IMG/VR virus record: IMGVR_UViG_3300027974_000025
Length of the DNA: 10,789 nucleotides
Reading direction: 5' to 3' (one strand)
DNA from: a virus
Taxonomy: Duplodnaviria > Heunggongvirae > Uroviricota > Caudoviricetes
Shown here: positions 837-8,905 of the stretch, piece by piece
How positions within the stretch are numbered: position 1 is the first letter of the stretch
How the letters are laid out: each line of letters opens with the position of its first letter
Program-made: the position numbers and the translations under genes
The notes under the pieces: model-generated
Told to the model about the DNA's origin: nothing
What the model saw: the letters and a program-made list of their open reading frames with translations, nothing else
Database searches by the model: none

Positions 837-1340
837 ATGGGAAGCAATAAAAATTTAAAAGCTTATGTTCGCTACGATGGTAGTGGCAGAGTAGTTCCAG
901 GTAGTTTAATACTACGTAGAAACAAACCAAAAGTGGGTAACTTTCAGCAAGTACAGGGCTATGAATGTAATAGCGGTGGTACATCTTATCGAGTTGTAGC
1001 AACTGCTTCAGGTGCTGTATCAAGTGTTATCACTTACAGATCTGGTGTTGACAACAGTACACAAACTGTAAATTTAGTTGGTACTAACTTATTAGTGGCT
1101 ACTATTTGTGCTGTAACTGGTTCTGTGTCTGCTACAAATGCTGTTGGAACTACAACAGTTATTACAGCAGGAGCTGGTTGTTCATGTTCTGCTTCAGATC
1201 CTGCAGTGAGCTTTAGTAATACAACTACTACCACTACATCATCTACTAGTACAACAACCACTACATCATCTACTAGTACAACAACTACAACAACAACTAG
1301 ACCTGTTACTACTACAACAACAACAACTAGTGGTGGATAA
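837..1340 (+). CDS. Putative virion/surface protein: N-terminal module, beta-rich Cys-containing domain, Thr/Ser mucin-like tail
   Basis: A-rich leader then ATG; ends in tandem TAA TAA. aa 7-39 align without gaps to aa 10-42 of the 3198 ORF. aa 45-128 are V/T/S/A/G-rich, with Cys44, 91, 115 and 117. aa 129-165 are almost all Thr/Ser. No signal peptide. Confidence 0.75.
   Translation: MGSNKNLKAYVRYDGSGRVVPGSLILRRNKPKVGNFQQVQGYECNSGGTSYRVVATASGAVSSVITYRSGVDNSTQTVNLVGTNLLVATICAVTGSVSATNAVGTTTVITAGAGCSCSASDPAVSFSNTTTTTTSSTSTTTTTSSTSTTTTTTTRPVTTTTTTTSGG
1221..1330 (+). repeat. Coding tandem repeat: two perfect 27-bp units plus ACA/ACT trinucleotide runs
   Basis: ACCACTACATCATCTACTAGTACAACA at 1230-1256 and 1257-1283 (each encodes TTTSSTSTT). 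ACTACAACAACAACTAG at 1284-1300 recurs at 1311-1330 with one extra ACA. Confidence 0.95.
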
Positions 1341-2381: not shown

Positions 2382-2530
2382 TGGCAAAAGAAATGATTAA
2401 ACGTAAAGATGGCTCTGTTTCACAGCGTGGTCTTTGGGACAATATTAGAGCTGCTAAAGGATCTGGAAAGAAGCCTACAGCTGCTATGTTAAAACAAGAG
2501 AAGAAAATAAAAGCTAAAACTAAAAAATAA
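2381..2530 (+). CDS. Small basic phage protein, 49 aa (not in the ORF track)
   Basis: ATG at 2381 overlaps the upstream TAA, and its TAA at 2528-2530 overlaps the next ATG. Translation: MAKEMIKRKDGSVSQRGLWDNIRAAKGSGKKPTAAMLKQEKKIKAKTKK. It fills the 2382-2529 gap exactly. Confidence 0.9.
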   Translation: MAKEMIKRKDGSVSQRGLWDNIRAAKGSGKKPTAAMLKQEKKIKAKTKK

Positions 2531-2874
2531 TGGCAACTGTAAAAAAAGATAGAATGGGTAGTCTTTCAGGAATGAAAGCTTCTGATAAGCGTGTAGGTCC
2601 TGTTGACCCTCAAGGTGCTTGGACTAAAGTTCAAGAAGCTACCTTAGCAGGTGCTAAAGGCAAAGCTAAGTTAACTATGGATAAAGAACTTGGTGCTACT
2701 AAGATGGCAAAGAATGGACGTTCTGAAAAGCAATTTGGTCTTGATAAGAAGCAAGCAGCTACAAAAGAAGTTAATCCAGCAAGTTTTAGAAAAGCAGCAT
2801 TAAAGCGTGAATCTGAATTAATAGAGAAGCGTAGTGGTGAAATGGCTCCTAAGTTAAAATCTAAAAAGAAATAA
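2530..2874 (+). CDS. Lys-rich basic hypothetical protein
   Basis: TAATG coupling; K/A/G/M-rich; contains KMAKNG and KRVGPVDPQ. Confidence 0.8.
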   Translation: MATVKKDRMGSLSGMKASDKRVGPVDPQGAWTKVQEATLAGAKGKAKLTMDKELGATKMAKNGRSEKQFGLDKKQAATKEVNPASFRKAALKRESELIEKRSGEMAPKLKSKKK

Positions 2875-2875
2875 C

Positions 2876-3196
2876 ATGGCAACAATTCAAAAACCTAAGA
2901 AAGCTGCTCCTAAAATGGTACCAGGTGAAATGACTGGTAAAATGTACAAGAAGTCTGAAATAGATGAGATTGTTAGAAAACAAGCTGCTGAATTAGACAA
3001 GTCTGGTGTATTTGGTAAAGCTGCTATGGCTAAGAAGAAAGCTCCTAAAGCTAAAGATGGTAAATGGATTCAAAAAGCTGTTAACCCTAAACATAAAGGA
3101 TATTGTACACCAATGACCAAAGCTACATGTACTCCTAAGCGTAAAGCTTTAGCTAAGACATTTAAAGCAATGGGCAAAGCTCGTAAAAGTAAATAA
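2876..3196 (+). CDS. Lys-rich basic hypothetical protein
   Basis: One-base spacing to neighbours; KAKDG followed by KWIQKAVNPKHKGYCTPMTKATCTPKRKALAKTFKAM. Confidence 0.8.
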   Translation: MATIQKPKKAAPKMVPGEMTGKMYKKSEIDEIVRKQAAELDKSGVFGKAAMAKKKAPKAKDGKWIQKAVNPKHKGYCTPMTKATCTPKRKALAKTFKAMGKARKSK

Positions 3197-3197
3197 T

Positions 3198-4178
3198 ATG
3201 GCAACAACAAACCCAAATATCCCTTTAAAGCCTTATGCAAGGTTTAACAGAAATGGAGATATAGTTCCAGGAAGCCTTGGTTTATTTAGAGGTGCTCCCA
3301 CTGTTGGTATCTGGAAAGAGATGCAACCTATAGAGTATTTTAATAAAACTACTAAAAGTTATAGTGGAGTGATTAATGCCAAATATCCAAATGCATTATT
3401 AGCTAATAATATTGCTTATAGTTTAGTAAGATTTCTTGATACTTTAGGTGCTGATGCATACAATACTGTTTTGAATTCTACAGTTTGTTCAGATGATGTT
3501 AATGCTTCTGAGTTTGCTAATATATTTAACATAGGTCAAAATCCTCCAGCATTAAATAACTATCTTGGACCATTCATGGGTGGTGGTCTTGCTGGATATC
3601 CTCATACAGGTATATTAGGAGCACAAGCTTGGCAAAGTCACACTACATCAAATAATAATGCAAATGGACCATTATTGTTAATTAACATGCCTCATATAGG
3701 AATTACACAACAAGCTGATCTTGTTGTAGCTAATGATAATGTAGGTAGAATGTTAAGAAGAGGTAAGAGTTCTGCTACAAGTGATAATACATGTGGAGCT
3801 GTTGCTACAGCTATTGCTGATGCAATTACATTAAATGGTGTTGCACCAGTGGCTACAAATGCTCCTTTTGTAAACAATTATCAAAGATATCAACTTGCAT
3901 TAATTGTTTATGGCTCTTATGCTTATTATAATGCTCACACATATTCAGAGAATATGATTCAAGCTACAGAACTTATAAGAGTTGCAAGTTATAACATCTT
4001 ACATAATACAATCATTCCTGCATTAGGATCTGTAAACAATTTATATTTATTTAGTGGTACATTTATTAATGCTGATGATGGTTATTCTGCATTTATTAAT
4101 TTTAATTCATTGGAAGTGAGAACTGGTTCAACTTGGACATCTCTTACAACAAACTTTTCAAATTTTATAAATGGCTAG
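3198..4178 (+). CDS. LCIB-family (theta-type, beta-CA fold) carbonic anhydrase homologue fused to an N-terminal module
   Basis: Family motifs in the right order: YPNAL; NTVLNSTVCSDD (Cys97, Asp99); GPFMGGGLAGYPHTG...SH; LLLINMPHIGI (His166); VGRMLRRG; CGAV (Cys199); LYLFSGTFIN. This is the Cys/His/Cys zinc triad plus Asp and Arg of LCIB/C proteins. Confidence 0.85.
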   Translation: MATTNPNIPLKPYARFNRNGDIVPGSLGLFRGAPTVGIWKEMQPIEYFNKTTKSYSGVINAKYPNALLANNIAYSLVRFLDTLGADAYNTVLNSTVCSDDVNASEFANIFNIGQNPPALNNYLGPFMGGGLAGYPHTGILGAQAWQSHTTSNNNANGPLLLINMPHIGITQQADLVVANDNVGRMLRRGKSSATSDNTCGAVATAIADAITLNGVAPVATNAPFVNNYQRYQLALIVYGSYAYYNAHTYSENMIQATELIRVASYNILHNTIIPALGSVNNLYLFSGTFINADDGYSAFINFNSLEVRTGSTWTSLTTNFSNFING

Positions 4179-4590
4179 TATTAAGAAACCTGGTCCCTAT
4201 AATCCACAGAAAGCTTCTGCTTATGTAGGTAAAGGAGTTCTCAGAAATGGGGACACTCTAACTTCTATCAAAGGTTCTATCACTCCTGTTCCTAATGGTC
4301 ATCTAATTAAAAAAGATGGCACATCATTAAAGAATGGTGGTAAGACAAAAGCTATTGTTAAAGCTGGTGGTCAAACACATAAAGTATTTAAGAAGAAAGT
4401 TGATAAGGGTATAGGTGATAAAGGAGACATAGTTGTAGATCATACAGCTGGTCCTTCTGCAGGTAAATGGGACAAGATTAACCTCACTGAAAAGTCTAAA
4501 GCTAAAACTGTTAAACAAGGTGTTGCTTCTGTTAAGAAATGGCATAGAGAGAACCCTAACTATGGTAAAAAGCCATTAAAAAAGAAGTGA
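4171..4590 (+). CDS. Lys/Gly-rich basic hypothetical protein
   Basis: 8-nt overlap with the upstream gene; several K-x-G motifs; a possibly folded C-terminal part (GDIVVDH...KWDKINLT...KKWHRENP). Confidence 0.8.
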   Translation: MASIKKPGPYNPQKASAYVGKGVLRNGDTLTSIKGSITPVPNGHLIKKDGTSLKNGGKTKAIVKAGGQTHKVFKKKVDKGIGDKGDIVVDHTAGPSAGKWDKINLTEKSKAKTVKQGVASVKKWHRENPNYGKKPLKKK

Positions 4591-5015
4591 TGGACATTAA
4601 AGAATTTGATATGGATAAGTACATCTTACTAATTGGTAAGAATGCTACTGACATATTCAAATACTATAAGGTTAAAGAAATGCATGGGCTAAATCTAAAA
4701 GATGCCCAAGCAGAAGAGGTTGATAAGACAAAAGGTAACGGAGTGTACATCTATGGGCTTACTAATTATGACCCAGCAGATAAAAAGCTTATAGCTAAAG
4801 ATCCTTATAAGCCCTTTTTATTCTTAAACATGGGAACGTTTAAAAAATACAGTGCTGATGAACAGAAGACAGCAATAATGCATGAAACTATGCACATGGC
4901 TCTTCTTCTATACAAATGGGATGCTGAGAAGAAATCAGAAGAGATAGTCACAATGGCTGAGGATGAGGCCAATAAGATTATTAGAAAACTTAAAGGTATT
5001 AAACTTATAAAGTAA
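4590..5015 (+). CDS. Small HExxH (zincin-like) putative metallopeptidase
   Basis: PFLFLN strand, then AIMHETMHMAL and downstream EEIVTMAE. Start is most likely the ATG at 4590 (TGATG overlap) rather than the GTG at 4587. Confidence 0.6.
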   Translation: MDIKEFDMDKYILLIGKNATDIFKYYKVKEMHGLNLKDAQAEEVDKTKGNGVYIYGLTNYDPADKKLIAKDPYKPFLFLNMGTFKKYSADEQKTAIMHETMHMALLLYKWDAEKKSEEIVTMAEDEANKIIRKLKGIKLIK

Positions 5016-5269
5016 TGGCAAAGACTGAAGCTTGGCAACGTAAGGAAGGTAAGAATCCTTCTGGTGGCCTAAATGCAAAAGGTAGGGCTTCCTACAACAG
5101 AGCTAATCCAGGTAAGCCTGGTCTTAAAGCTCCACAACCTGAGGGAGGTTCTAGAAAGAAATCATTCTGTGCTAGGATGAGTGGTATGAAAAAGAAACTA
5201 ACAAGTTCAAAGACTGCTAATGATCCTAACAGTAGAATTAATAAGTCACTTCGTAAATGGAAATGCTAA
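5015..5269 (+). CDS. Conserved basic phage protein (DUF6321-like, from recollection)
   Basis: AWQRKEGKNPSGGLNAKGRASYN...RKKSFCARM...SRINKSLRKWKC is a pattern I recognise from many aquatic phage genomes. TAATG coupling. Confidence 0.75.
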   Translation: MAKTEAWQRKEGKNPSGGLNAKGRASYNRANPGKPGLKAPQPEGGSRKKSFCARMSGMKKKLTSSKTANDPNSRINKSLRKWKC

Positions 5270-5288
5270 CAATTTAAAATTATAAAAA

Positions 5289-5735
5289 ATGGCAAAGATG
5301 AAAAAGGCTCAATCTGGTGATATGGTATCAAAAATAAAATCAGCTGCTAAAAAAGCAGATTCAACTGTTCGTAAAACAGGCATGAACTTTGACAAGAAAA
5401 GTTTTGATTCATTACCTAAAATGAAAACTAAAGCTAAATCTGGTGGAGAATTTGGTATGTTATCAGTGAAAGCTGGTATTGACAAAAACCCTAATCCTAC
5501 ACAAGCAGATAGAATTGCAGGTGCTAAGGGTATGGCTAAGTCTGGTAAGAAAGTTGCTAAGCAAGCTGCTATTGCAATTGCTATGAAGAAAGAAGGTAAA
5601 GTACCTAAGAAGATGATGAAAGCTGGTGGCACTGTATCTATGCAACTTGGTAGTTATGACAGACAAATTGGTAAAAACTACACTGGTAAAGCTAAGATGG
5701 GTAAATCTGTTGGTAAGTGTAAAAATGGTTGCTAA
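5289..5735 (+). CDS. Lys/Met/Ala/Gly-rich basic protein with repeated K-x-G motifs
   Basis: A-rich leader; seven (K/M)x(K/Q)xG motifs; includes KQAAIAIAM and GMLSVKAGIDKNPNPTQADRIAGA segments; ends KCKNGC. Confidence 0.8.
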   Translation: MAKMKKAQSGDMVSKIKSAAKKADSTVRKTGMNFDKKSFDSLPKMKTKAKSGGEFGMLSVKAGIDKNPNPTQADRIAGAKGMAKSGKKVAKQAAIAIAMKKEGKVPKKMMKAGGTVSMQLGSYDRQIGKNYTGKAKMGKSVGKCKNGC

Positions 5736-5941
5736 TGAAATCAGCTAAGGTGAGTGTTAAACAAGCAAAGTCAGTAAAGCCAATGACTGCAGGTAAAGCT
5801 AAAGGATCAGGTACACCAAGACCTGCACCTAAGGTGGCTCCTCCTAAACCAGTTGATGGTAATTATATGAAGGAAGCTGATACAAAGCTTAGATTGAGAA
5901 GTAAGAATTGGCCTATGAAACAAAAGAGATTATCAAAATAA
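5735..5941 (+). CDS. Lys/Pro-rich basic hypothetical protein
   Basis: Start is most likely the ATG at 5735 (TAATG overlap) rather than the TTG at 5729. The stop lies just before the terminator. Confidence 0.75.
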   Translation: MKSAKVSVKQAKSVKPMTAGKAKGSGTPRPAPKVAPPKPVDGNYMKEADTKLRLRSKNWPMKQKRLSK

Positions 5942-5944
5942 AAG

Positions 5945-5971
5945 AAAAGCCCCAATTAAGGGGCTTTTTTT
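5945..5971. terminator. Bidirectional Rho-independent terminator
   Basis: AAAAGCCCC-AATTAA-GGGGCTTTT inverted repeat (5945-5968). T7 tract at 5965-5971 on +, and an A-rich run upstream giving a T tract on -. It sits in the 34-bp gap between convergent stops. Confidence 0.95.
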
Positions 5972-8186: not shown

Positions 8187-8450
8187 TTATTTGTTTAAAT
8201 TGTTAAATCTTATAATGTCTTCACCACGTAATCTAATCTCTGTTTGATAAGTGTGACGTTCTCTTTTGGAACCAACCACTTTACCATTTTTAACATCAGG
8301 TACTTCTTCAGAACGCTCGTAATAATCATCAAATAAGATTAATAGTTCCTCTTCAGAAATTTGCATAGATCTGATCATTTTGTTAAGGTTAAAGCACTCT
8401 GTGTAGTCTTTACCATTTTCTCCTTGTCTTGTAAAAAAGAATAAACTCAT
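8187..8450 (-). CDS. Hypothetical protein
   Basis: ATGA overlap with the upstream gene; 87 aa; no recognised motif. Confidence 0.75.
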   Translation of the reverse strand: MSLFFFTRQGENGKDYTECFNLNKMIRSMQISEEELLILFDDYYERSEEVPDVKNGKVVGSKRERHTYQTEIRLRGEDIIRFNNLNK

Positions 8451-8905
8451 TGTTTTGGTTTTATTTGATTGTAAAATTGTTTTGATAAATGTTGTAATTG
8501 ATATGTATAAACTTCTTCTGTTTCAGGAGATAGTTCTATTCCCACAGCGTGTAACATAGAATATGTTAAATGTAACAGTTCATGATGTACAATAGATGTA
8601 TCTTCAGCACTCTTAGTAGGAAGCCATATTACAAATGTGGTTCCAAGCTCATCAGAAAGAGTTAATCCTCTTGCTTTGAAGTCTTCATTTGTATAGGGCT
8701 CATTTAATATTTGAGTGGCATAACTTGCAGCATAAGCTGTGTCATCTGTAATAATTATATAAGCATCTAGATCAAAGGTGCCACCAGTTATCATAAATTG
8801 TTTTGGTTCTTCCATTTTATCCATGTTTATAATTAATAAACTCATTAAAACTATTACTAACATTATACCTAATACATAAGTAATAATCTTATTTACCATG
8901 CTCAT
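8447..8905 (-). CDS. Membrane-anchored HExxH (zincin-like) protein
   Basis: N-terminal hydrophobic helix IITYVLGIMLVIVLMSLLII; FVIWL strand; IVHHELLHL with downstream EEVYTY. Confidence 0.65.
   Translation of the reverse strand: MSMVNKIITYVLGIMLVIVLMSLLIINMDKMEEPKQFMITGGTFDLDAYIIITDDTAYAASYATQILNEPYTNEDFKARGLTLSDELGTTFVIWLPTKSAEDTSIVHHELLHLTYSMLHAVGIELSPETEEVYTYQLQHLSKQFYNQIKPKQ

Follow-up and report, generated by a model that had tools for sequence, protein, structure and literature searches.

The gene and its catalytic residues

We analysed a stretch of 10,789 nucleotides (hereafter the window) from a tailed-phage record, IMGVR_UViG_3300027974_000025. The window corresponds to bases 38081-48869 (minus strand) of this 58.7-kb IMG/VR virus record, confirming its phage setting. 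An open reading frame (ORF) at 3198-4178 encodes a small, soluble-looking protein of 326 residues, P0001, which an initial annotation made from the letters alone had read as a carbonic anhydrase (CA) of the LCIB/theta class. Both sequence and fold upheld this homology. The ATG lies 1 nt past the stop of ORF 2876-3196, and the 3' end of the gene overlaps ORF 4171-4590 by 8 nt. The gene and its catalytic parts are listed below, with PtLCIB4 of Phaeodactylum tricornutum as the reference for alignment.

3198-4178, plus strand: LCIB-type carbonic anhydrase gene (protein P0001, 326 residues), from its open frame and Pfam match
3354-4178, plus strand: LCIB_C_CA / beta-CA-like catalytic domain, residues 53-326, from Pfam, fold and family profile
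3486-3494, plus strand: Cys97-Ser98-Asp99, with Cys97 the first zinc ligand and Asp99 the catalytic Asp, from alignment and invariance
3495-3545, plus strand: clade-specific segment, residues 100-116, with a conserved NIGQxP, from alignment, model and predicted dimer
3639-3641, plus strand: His148, the invariant equivalent of PtLCIB4 His88, from alignment
3693-3695, plus strand: His166, second zinc ligand, from alignment
3756-3758, plus strand: Arg187, invariant, from alignment of its RRG motif with that of PtLCIB4
3792-3794, plus strand: Cys199, third zinc ligand, from alignment

Each motif that had been picked out in the translation was in place: CSDD (Cys97 at 3486-3488, and Asp99), PHIG (His166 at 3693-3695), RRG (Arg187/188) and CGA (Cys199 at 3792-3794), with GGLAGYPHTG...SH (His148) between them. 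The Pfam family LCIB_C_CA (PF18599) matched residues 73-308 with an expectation value (E) of 8.2e-18 and 64.9 bits against a cut-off of 25, the match spanning profile positions 8-222 of 223. No other Pfam family, the canonical beta-CA model included, matched P0001 at E up to 10, and no PHROGs family matched it. Searched as a single sequence against solved structures, P0001 found PtLCIB4 (5b5y) at E 2e-5, as well as 6kfs and 9vzj. We also aligned 79 sequences, which covered every phage lineage found together with chromosomal Bacteroidota homologues. The profile of this alignment matched 6kfs at E 2.2e-41 and PtLCIB4 at E 1.6e-39 in the PDB, and Chlamydomonas LCIB and LCIC at E 6e-14 and 1e-13, respectively. 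A search of 5.8 billion protein sequences returned 362 relatives of P0001; PF18599 was present in all of the best 120, many of which lay on contigs of 100-160 kb. Among close relatives, the pairwise ratio of nonsynonymous to synonymous substitution (dN/dS) in the enzyme domain was 0.15-0.32. Judged by these comparisons, the similarity of P0001 to the LCIB family is far beyond chance, and we regard it as close to certain that P0001 is a true LCIB-family zinc protein.

The zinc triad and the Asp/Arg pair, which had been described as intact, are indeed so by alignment, and they are invariant across phage and cellular relatives. Cys97, Asp99, His148, His166, Arg187 and Cys199 were among only 21 invariant columns of the 79-sequence alignment, and they were invariant or nearly so in 127 phage-type proteins. 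Ser98 was nearly invariant from phages to Bacteroidota. In PtLCIB4, the residues corresponding to Cys97/Ser98/Asp99 are Cys46/Ser47/Asp48, and those corresponding to His148, His166 and Cys199 are His88, His102 and Cys126, respectively, with the offset of the PtLCIB4 numbering set by alignments to the PDB mutant chains S47R and H88A. In the inactive Chlamydomonas LCIB and LCIC, His162/161 and Arg194/193 are disordered (review PMC5876011). Judging by their spacing, we infer that these residues should be the equivalents of His148 and Arg187.

Predicted fold and dimer

A first AlphaFold model, built with 36 sequences, had a predicted local distance difference test score (pLDDT) below 50 over residues 91-132, which include Cys97; PtLCIB4 was already top-ranked when this model was searched with Foldseek. 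It was superseded by a second model built with the 79 sequences, which had a mean pLDDT of 87.9 and low values only at residues 100-113. In VIA-align, the second model matched PtLCIB4 with Z 26.6 and a root-mean-square deviation of 2.3 A (234 of 241 residues), and 6kfs with Z 26.2. The scores were Z 21.3 and 21.0 for Chlamydomonas LCIB and LCIC, respectively, but only Z 10.5-12.6 for ordinary beta-CAs. As modelled, the fold of P0001 is nearer to the LCIB structures than to canonical beta-CAs. When AlphaFold DB clusters were searched with the model, algal LCIB-domain proteins came first. The 2.3 A superposition on PtLCIB4, taken with the residue-by-residue alignment, implies that Cys97, His166 and Cys199 would converge on one metal site.

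When residues 50-326 were predicted as two copies, the score was 0.93, compared with 0.00 for the best of 3 controls. Of proteins solved as same-chain pairs, 20 of 30 reached this mark; of those solved as single chains, 1 of 23 did. The dimer runs showed at least 98% contact agreement, with a partner pLDDT of at least 94. The predicted interface comprises residues 98-101, 126-131, 136-141, 147-148, 187-192 and 200-201, and the active-site residues of P0001 are predicted to lie within it. Because LCIB dimers have already been solved, this result indicates likeness, not proof, and may reflect memory. The phage-type proteins carry a 9-residue insertion with the conserved NIGQxP (residues 111-116), which is absent from the solved algal LCIBs and from a Bacteroidota homologue. 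This segment falls within the predicted dimer interface and has low pLDDT in the monomer model.

An exchangeable N-terminal module

Ahead of the enzyme domain, P0001 carries a short module (module A), which had been noticed at the outset as shared with another protein of the window. The two features concerned are as follows.

3216-3338, plus strand: module A, residues ~7-47 of P0001, consensus LKAYVRYDxxGxIVPGSLILxxxxPKxGxWxEV, shared with other proteins
837-1340, plus strand: tag-only paralogue of 167 residues, with module A, a Cys-containing middle and a Thr/Ser tail of ~40 residues, from phmmer

The sharing is genuine: residues 7-47 of P0001 matched residues 4-44 of ORF 837-1340 at a phmmer E of 4e-7, and this ORF was the sole other match to module A among the 256 ORFs of the 58.7-kb record. 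Module A is predicted as three short strands, with a lower-confidence linker (residues 41-50) to the enzyme domain. A HMMER search with residues 1-55 against 1.84 billion representatives found 28 proteins at E up to 1e-3, ranging from 68 to 492 residues, in which module A often occurred twice, in tandem. The C-terminal parts behind it included Fib_succ_major (lectin-like) domains, an Ice_binding-like domain and poly-Thr regions. We saw no N-terminal signal peptide in the module-A protein sequences read, P0001 included. An ESM Atlas feature search with residues 1-55 gave no usable match, and PHROGs gave none for ORF 837-1340, for nine alternative N-terminal segments or for one C-terminal segment.

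Module A recurs in other phage genomes. Complete relatives of the source phage have two or three module-A genes within 3 kb, and more distant relatives have module A only on the LCIB protein. On an unrelated 65-kb phage contig (L090), an endolysin gene is followed by a module-A LCIB gene and then by a gene for a Fib_succ_major protein with a double module A. The wider order on this contig (L090 6673-11612) is a small ORF containing a hydrophobic stretch (holin-like by eye), an LRR_5 protein, two more small ORFs with such stretches and the M15 endolysin, and then the LCIB protein, the lectin-like protein and a 40-residue basic protein. Similar versions of the first ORF and the 40-residue basic peptide occur in the genome that holds the window.

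Across IMG/VR, the enzyme domain was joined to at least seven other N-terminal parts, or to none. Tags B1 (MANLTLRxxKGSxLTxxExDGNFEY) and B2 (MSTLKTNNIEPxSGN) were also found on proteins of neighbouring genes. In the LCIB tree, B1 and B2 proteins were nested in the module-A clade and interleaved with each other, and it follows from this arrangement that tags were exchanged on a retained enzyme domain. When the P0001 gene was compared with those of L014 and L018, synonymous divergence (dS) was 0.95-1.14 for the tag and 0.13-0.26 for the enzyme domain, a contrast of 4-9 times in some close pairs. This contrast suggests tag-domain recombination even among near relatives. Against deposited phages, B1 and B2 gave matches at E 0.02-0.03 only, one of them to a Synechococcus phage tail-fibre gene, and we set these aside as too weak to count.

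A branch of LCIB proteins on phage contigs

Relatives of P0001 were present on at least 106 IMG/VR contigs, in records from 4 kb to 217 kb long. The initial annotation had stated that bacterial LCIB homologues exist, and we found such proteins. A motif scan of one genome per prokaryote species gave only two, on a 1.6-kb contig of a metagenome-assembled genome (MAG) and in a Roseivirgaceae MAG (26% identity). A search started from the Roseivirgaceae protein returned 644 cellular proteins. The best of these were all bare domains of ~237 residues, many on megabase contigs, and the carriers included Reichenbachiella, Aquimarina, Aureitalea, Seonamhaeicola, Pontibacter and others. P0001 and one cellular protein, P0163, shared 25% identity (E 5e-19). 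In a maximum-likelihood tree, the 68 phage sequences were split from the 11 cellular sequences by a long branch with support 100/100; the tree is unrooted and contains no algal sequences, and the direction and number of transfers cannot be read from it.

The BFVD viral structure library held no LCIB-type match at E up to 0.001, and its nearest enzyme matches were giant-virus beta-CAs (E 0.02-0.06). Among the deposited phages of INPHARED, a set from which the window's own record may have been withheld, tblastn found no match for whole P0001 or module A, and megablast found none for the window. The literature that we searched, including that on auxiliary-gene carbonic anhydrases and on theta-CA in bacteria, contained no description of a phage LCIB. 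Tandem LCIB genes, one with an N-terminal part of ~80-120 residues and one bare, occur on large phage contigs of 157-217 kb; these pairs lie at L076 8907-10957, L079 8922-10960 and L085 9749-11811.

The source phage, its host and its occurrence

The 58.7-kb record, estimated to be 51% complete, encodes a terminase large subunit (TerL), a portal protein, a major head protein and an endolysin; we found no tRNA genes in it. The source phage is an uncultured relative of crAss and Cellulophaga phi4:1 phages from freshwater lakes. Its TerL was nearest to that of Leptolyngbya phage Lbo-JY46 (38% identity), followed by those of Cellulophaga phages phi17:2 and phi4:1 (31%) and of crAss-like phages (~27%). 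In all, 92 records matched TerL, with Flavobacterium phages the most numerous named group. The phage RecA was nearest to Bacteroidota RecAs (44-47% identity), bar one match at 71% on a 2.8-kb contig that was binned with an Aquiluna MAG and is probably a phage fragment. The Bacteroidota host that had been supposed is thus likely, though not proven, from the TerL relatives (Flavobacterium, Cellulophaga and crAss-like phages) and RecA. We considered a cyanobacterial host, as the Leptolyngbya phage is the best cultured TerL relative, and rejected it: Bacteroidota are the hosts of most other TerL relatives and the source of the closest cellular RecAs.

Metagenomes from freshwater and lakes contain the LCIB gene in 18 studies, and six metatranscriptome libraries contain it as well. 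A contig of 3,485 nt from one of these libraries is identical to window positions 2444-5928. These contigs place the LCIB gene in RNA libraries and do not prove its transcription. The four sequencing runs placed on the window consist of assembled contigs, whose depth cannot rank genes and whose uncovered parts carry no meaning. In one RNA-library contig, 13 other letters link position 2915 to 5336, and the LCIB gene and three of its neighbours are bypassed. This joint appeared in that contig only; just 21 letters fit on one side of it, and the flanking sequence in either direction is Lys/Ala-rich, repeat-like coding DNA. We treated the joint as unreliable. It may represent a relative without the cassette, or an assembly artefact.

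Gene neighbourhood

The initial annotation had placed the gene within a block of likely virion genes, and this did not hold. No neighbour in the window matched a virion family, and in a complete relative (IMGVR_UViG_3300021354_000001; 113.6 kb, with terminal repeats), the terminase gene (at 27 kb) and the LCIB gene (at 95 kb) lie ~66 kb apart. In the source phage, the LCIB gene lies at the far end of a same-strand run that starts with the endolysin gene, outside the window. Small ORFs near the endolysin are taken, from their sequences, as putative holin- and spanin-type lysis genes. After this lysis part, the run continues with a PHROG-4417 protein, a module-A mucin-like protein, a DUF5856 protein and several small Lys-rich proteins. 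From the strand and gene run shared with the endolysin and lysis-type genes, we infer that the LCIB protein is probably made late. One feature marks the end of the run.

5942-5971, no strand assigned: two-way terminator-like hairpin of 12 pairs, GC-rich, with T runs on both strands, between converging gene runs

This hairpin closes both the plus-strand run holding the LCIB gene and a converging minus-strand run. The 3,485-nt RNA-library contig ends at 5928, 14 nt before it. Sigma-70-like promoter matches were not enriched in the window.

The strongest link of a tagged LCIB protein to a particle, an indirect one, came from a myovirus contig (L039). There, genes for a head protease, a major head protein and PhoH are followed by those for a 69-residue B2 protein and the LCIB protein (with tag B2), and then by those for a 120-residue B1 protein, a 162-residue ORF, a 776-residue B1 protein, a head-tail adaptor, two ORFs and a tail sheath. 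The 776-residue B1 protein is built of fibre-like repeats of the QTASYVQN type. A Pfam scan of the tag-bearing proteins of this contig and their neighbours found nothing.

Other genes of the window gave the following observations. ORF 1-819 is open at its 5' end; its full form of 338 residues matches phrog_4417 and has no Pfam match, and ORF 837-1340 starts 17 nt after it. ORF 1356-1772 matches DUF5856 (E 3e-14) and also phrog_858, labelled 'starvation-inducible transcriptional regulator', and relatives L002-L005 keep this DUF5856 gene at the equivalent place. Six small, very Lys-rich proteins surround the LCIB gene, encoded at 2530-3196, 4171-4590 and 5015-5941. Of these regions, the last includes ORF 5015-5269, a DUF6321 protein (E 4e-20); in PHROGs, this family makes up the C-terminus of far larger proteins, of up to 928 positions. 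ORFs 4587-5015 (142 residues, HETMH) and 8447-8905 (152 residues, HELLH) contain an HExxH motif, as in zinc metallopeptidases, and ORF 4587-5015 also has a weak PHROG match labelled HNH endonuclease (E 3e-4).

Interpretation

The explanation that we favour, tentatively, is that P0001 is an active, dimeric carbonic anhydrase mounted on the virion. Two P0001 chains would pair and, by analogy with beta-CAs, each active site would lie at the dimer interface. Cys97, His166 and Cys199 would hold zinc; Asp99 and Arg187, close to His148, would orient a water or hydroxide bound to this zinc, which would interconvert CO2 and HCO3-. Module A would serve as a docking tag for a late-made structure, most simply the virion, and a tagged virion would carry carbonic anhydrase activity outside the cell. 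The virion is the most likely destination because module A carries lectin-like, ice-binding-like and mucin-like cargoes without signal peptides, and because the other tags include one shared with a fibre protein. Such cargoes make most sense on a particle released by lysis. It is possible, and we hold this with more reserve, that many freshwater lineages (crAss-related podovirus-like, myovirus and jumbo-size) mount an active CA by way of lineage-specific tags. With P0001 on the virion, a carbonic anhydrase would for the first time be known as part of a virus particle, acting outside the cell, for example by shifting pH or the CO2/bicarbonate balance in a thin film around the host while the phage adsorbs or enters.

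Several points weigh against this explanation. No hallmark virion gene is adjacent to the LCIB gene in the source phage; elsewhere, the LCIB gene adjoins a DNA polymerase gene (L081) or lies near an ATPase gene (L066). Tag-less copies and tandem pairs occur in L076, L079 and L085. Searches of module A against PHROGs, Pfam and deposited phages returned no annotated structural family. A two-fold enzyme fits poorly on a three-fold fibre anchor, and a virion-borne carbonic anhydrase has, to our knowledge, neither a precedent nor an evident use. P0001 is likely to be catalytically active, yet recombinant Chlamydomonas LCIB and LCIC have the same ligands and are inactive (review PMC5876011), so an intact site is no guarantee of activity.

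The main rival, which we consider doubtful, is a soluble late auxiliary metabolic enzyme in the infected Bacteroidota cell. P0001 would then speed CO2/HCO3- equilibration for the host acetyl-CoA, pyruvate and phosphoenolpyruvate carboxylases, carbamoyl-phosphate synthetase (CPSase) and PurK, or contribute to pH control, and the tag would merely aid assembly or folding or tie the enzyme to other late proteins. [quoted passage not shown] P0001 has no signal peptide and would therefore stay cytoplasmic until lysis. The existence of tag-less phage LCIB copies and the position of LCIB beside replication genes in some lineages also suit a soluble enzyme, as do the chromosomal LCIB-type genes of Bacteroidota, a plausible source. 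Those Bacteroidota proteins, however, are only ~25% identical and lie across a long branch. A soluble role also leaves unexplained why the enzyme should bear lineage-specific tags that were swapped repeatedly and that recur on lectin-like, ice-binding-like, mucin-like and fibre proteins, and the run shared with the endolysin gene makes the protein probably late, when a boost to biosynthesis would be least useful. Moreover, five near-complete LCIB phages gave no CPSase_L_D2 or AIRC (PurE) match. Bicarbonate supply, one of the functions proposed at first, gained no support from this search; the other, display on the virion, drew indirect support from the sharing and swapping of tags.

A re-used scaffold is improbable. 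P0001 would in that case be a dimeric structural or binding protein with the LCIB fold, keeping zinc for stability and having no relevant CO2 hydration. The recombinant Chlamydomonas proteins, which keep their ligands and are inactive (PMC5876011), offer a parallel, and the clade-specific NIGQxP (residues 111-116) at the predicted interface could serve a new contact. By contrast, the non-ligand residues Asp99, His148 and Arg187 are invariant from phages to Bacteroidota, and Ser98 nearly so; a purely structural zinc site is unlikely to fit this pattern, because it would not require invariant non-ligand catalytic residues.

Least probable is an action of this fold and metal site on a different small molecule. 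Certain enzymes of beta-CA fold use COS or CS2 as substrates for hydrolysis, and the one feature in favour here is the clade-specific insertion beside the active site, which could reshape the pocket; against it, the nearest solved relative is PtLCIB4, which Jin et al. reportedly found in 2016 to be an active CO2 hydratase.

Comparison with known systems

Algal CO2-concentrating mechanisms are almost the sole setting in which LCIB/theta carbonic anhydrases are known. Here, LCIB proteins with a complete active site form a large, diverse branch found on phage contigs only, with heterotrophic Bacteroidota as the probable hosts. P0001 resembles the algal PtLCIB4 (PDB 5b5y, 5b5z and 5b60) in its fold, its Cys-His-Cys ligands, the Ser and Asp that come one and two residues after the first Cys, His88 and the RRG Arg, and the two-chain assembly of PtLCIB4 is predicted for P0001 likewise. 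The two proteins share ~20% identity, and P0001 adds a 50-residue N-terminal tag and the 9-residue NIGQxP insertion; it is also encoded by a bacteriophage, outside any CO2-concentrating mechanism. Chlamydomonas LCIB and LCIC (PDB 5k5w and 5b5x) belong to the same Pfam family and have the same fold but are more distant, and they act around the pyrenoid, unlike the phage protein.

Among the cellular proteins compared, the chromosomal LCIBs of Bacteroidota (~237 residues) are the closest relatives of P0001. They have the same invariant residues and come from the phylum of the probable host; unlike P0001, they are bare domains without a tag or the NIGQxP insertion. Canonical beta-CAs such as E. 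coli Can and H. influenzae CA have a related fold but differ from P0001 in their sequence motifs and helical additions.

For the tag, the comparison is with phages that carry several receptor-binding proteins. CBA120-type tailspikes and the proteins of Klebsiella multi-depolymerase podophages have conserved N-terminal anchors and exchangeable C-terminal modules. P0001 likewise has a short N-terminal module common to late proteins, with exchanged cargoes. It differs in that its cargo is a carbonic anhydrase and not a depolymerase or adhesin, its tag matches no described anchor family, and its attachment to a particle is proposed. Reported viral CAs, those of viromes and the beta-CAs of Pandoravirus and Harvfovirus, are virus-encoded like P0001 but belong to other CA classes and have no reported structural-type tags. 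If P0001 is soluble, the viral metabolic genes on record for lakes would gain a new CA class; if it sits on the particle, as the swapped tags suggest, it would represent a new kind of virion enzyme.

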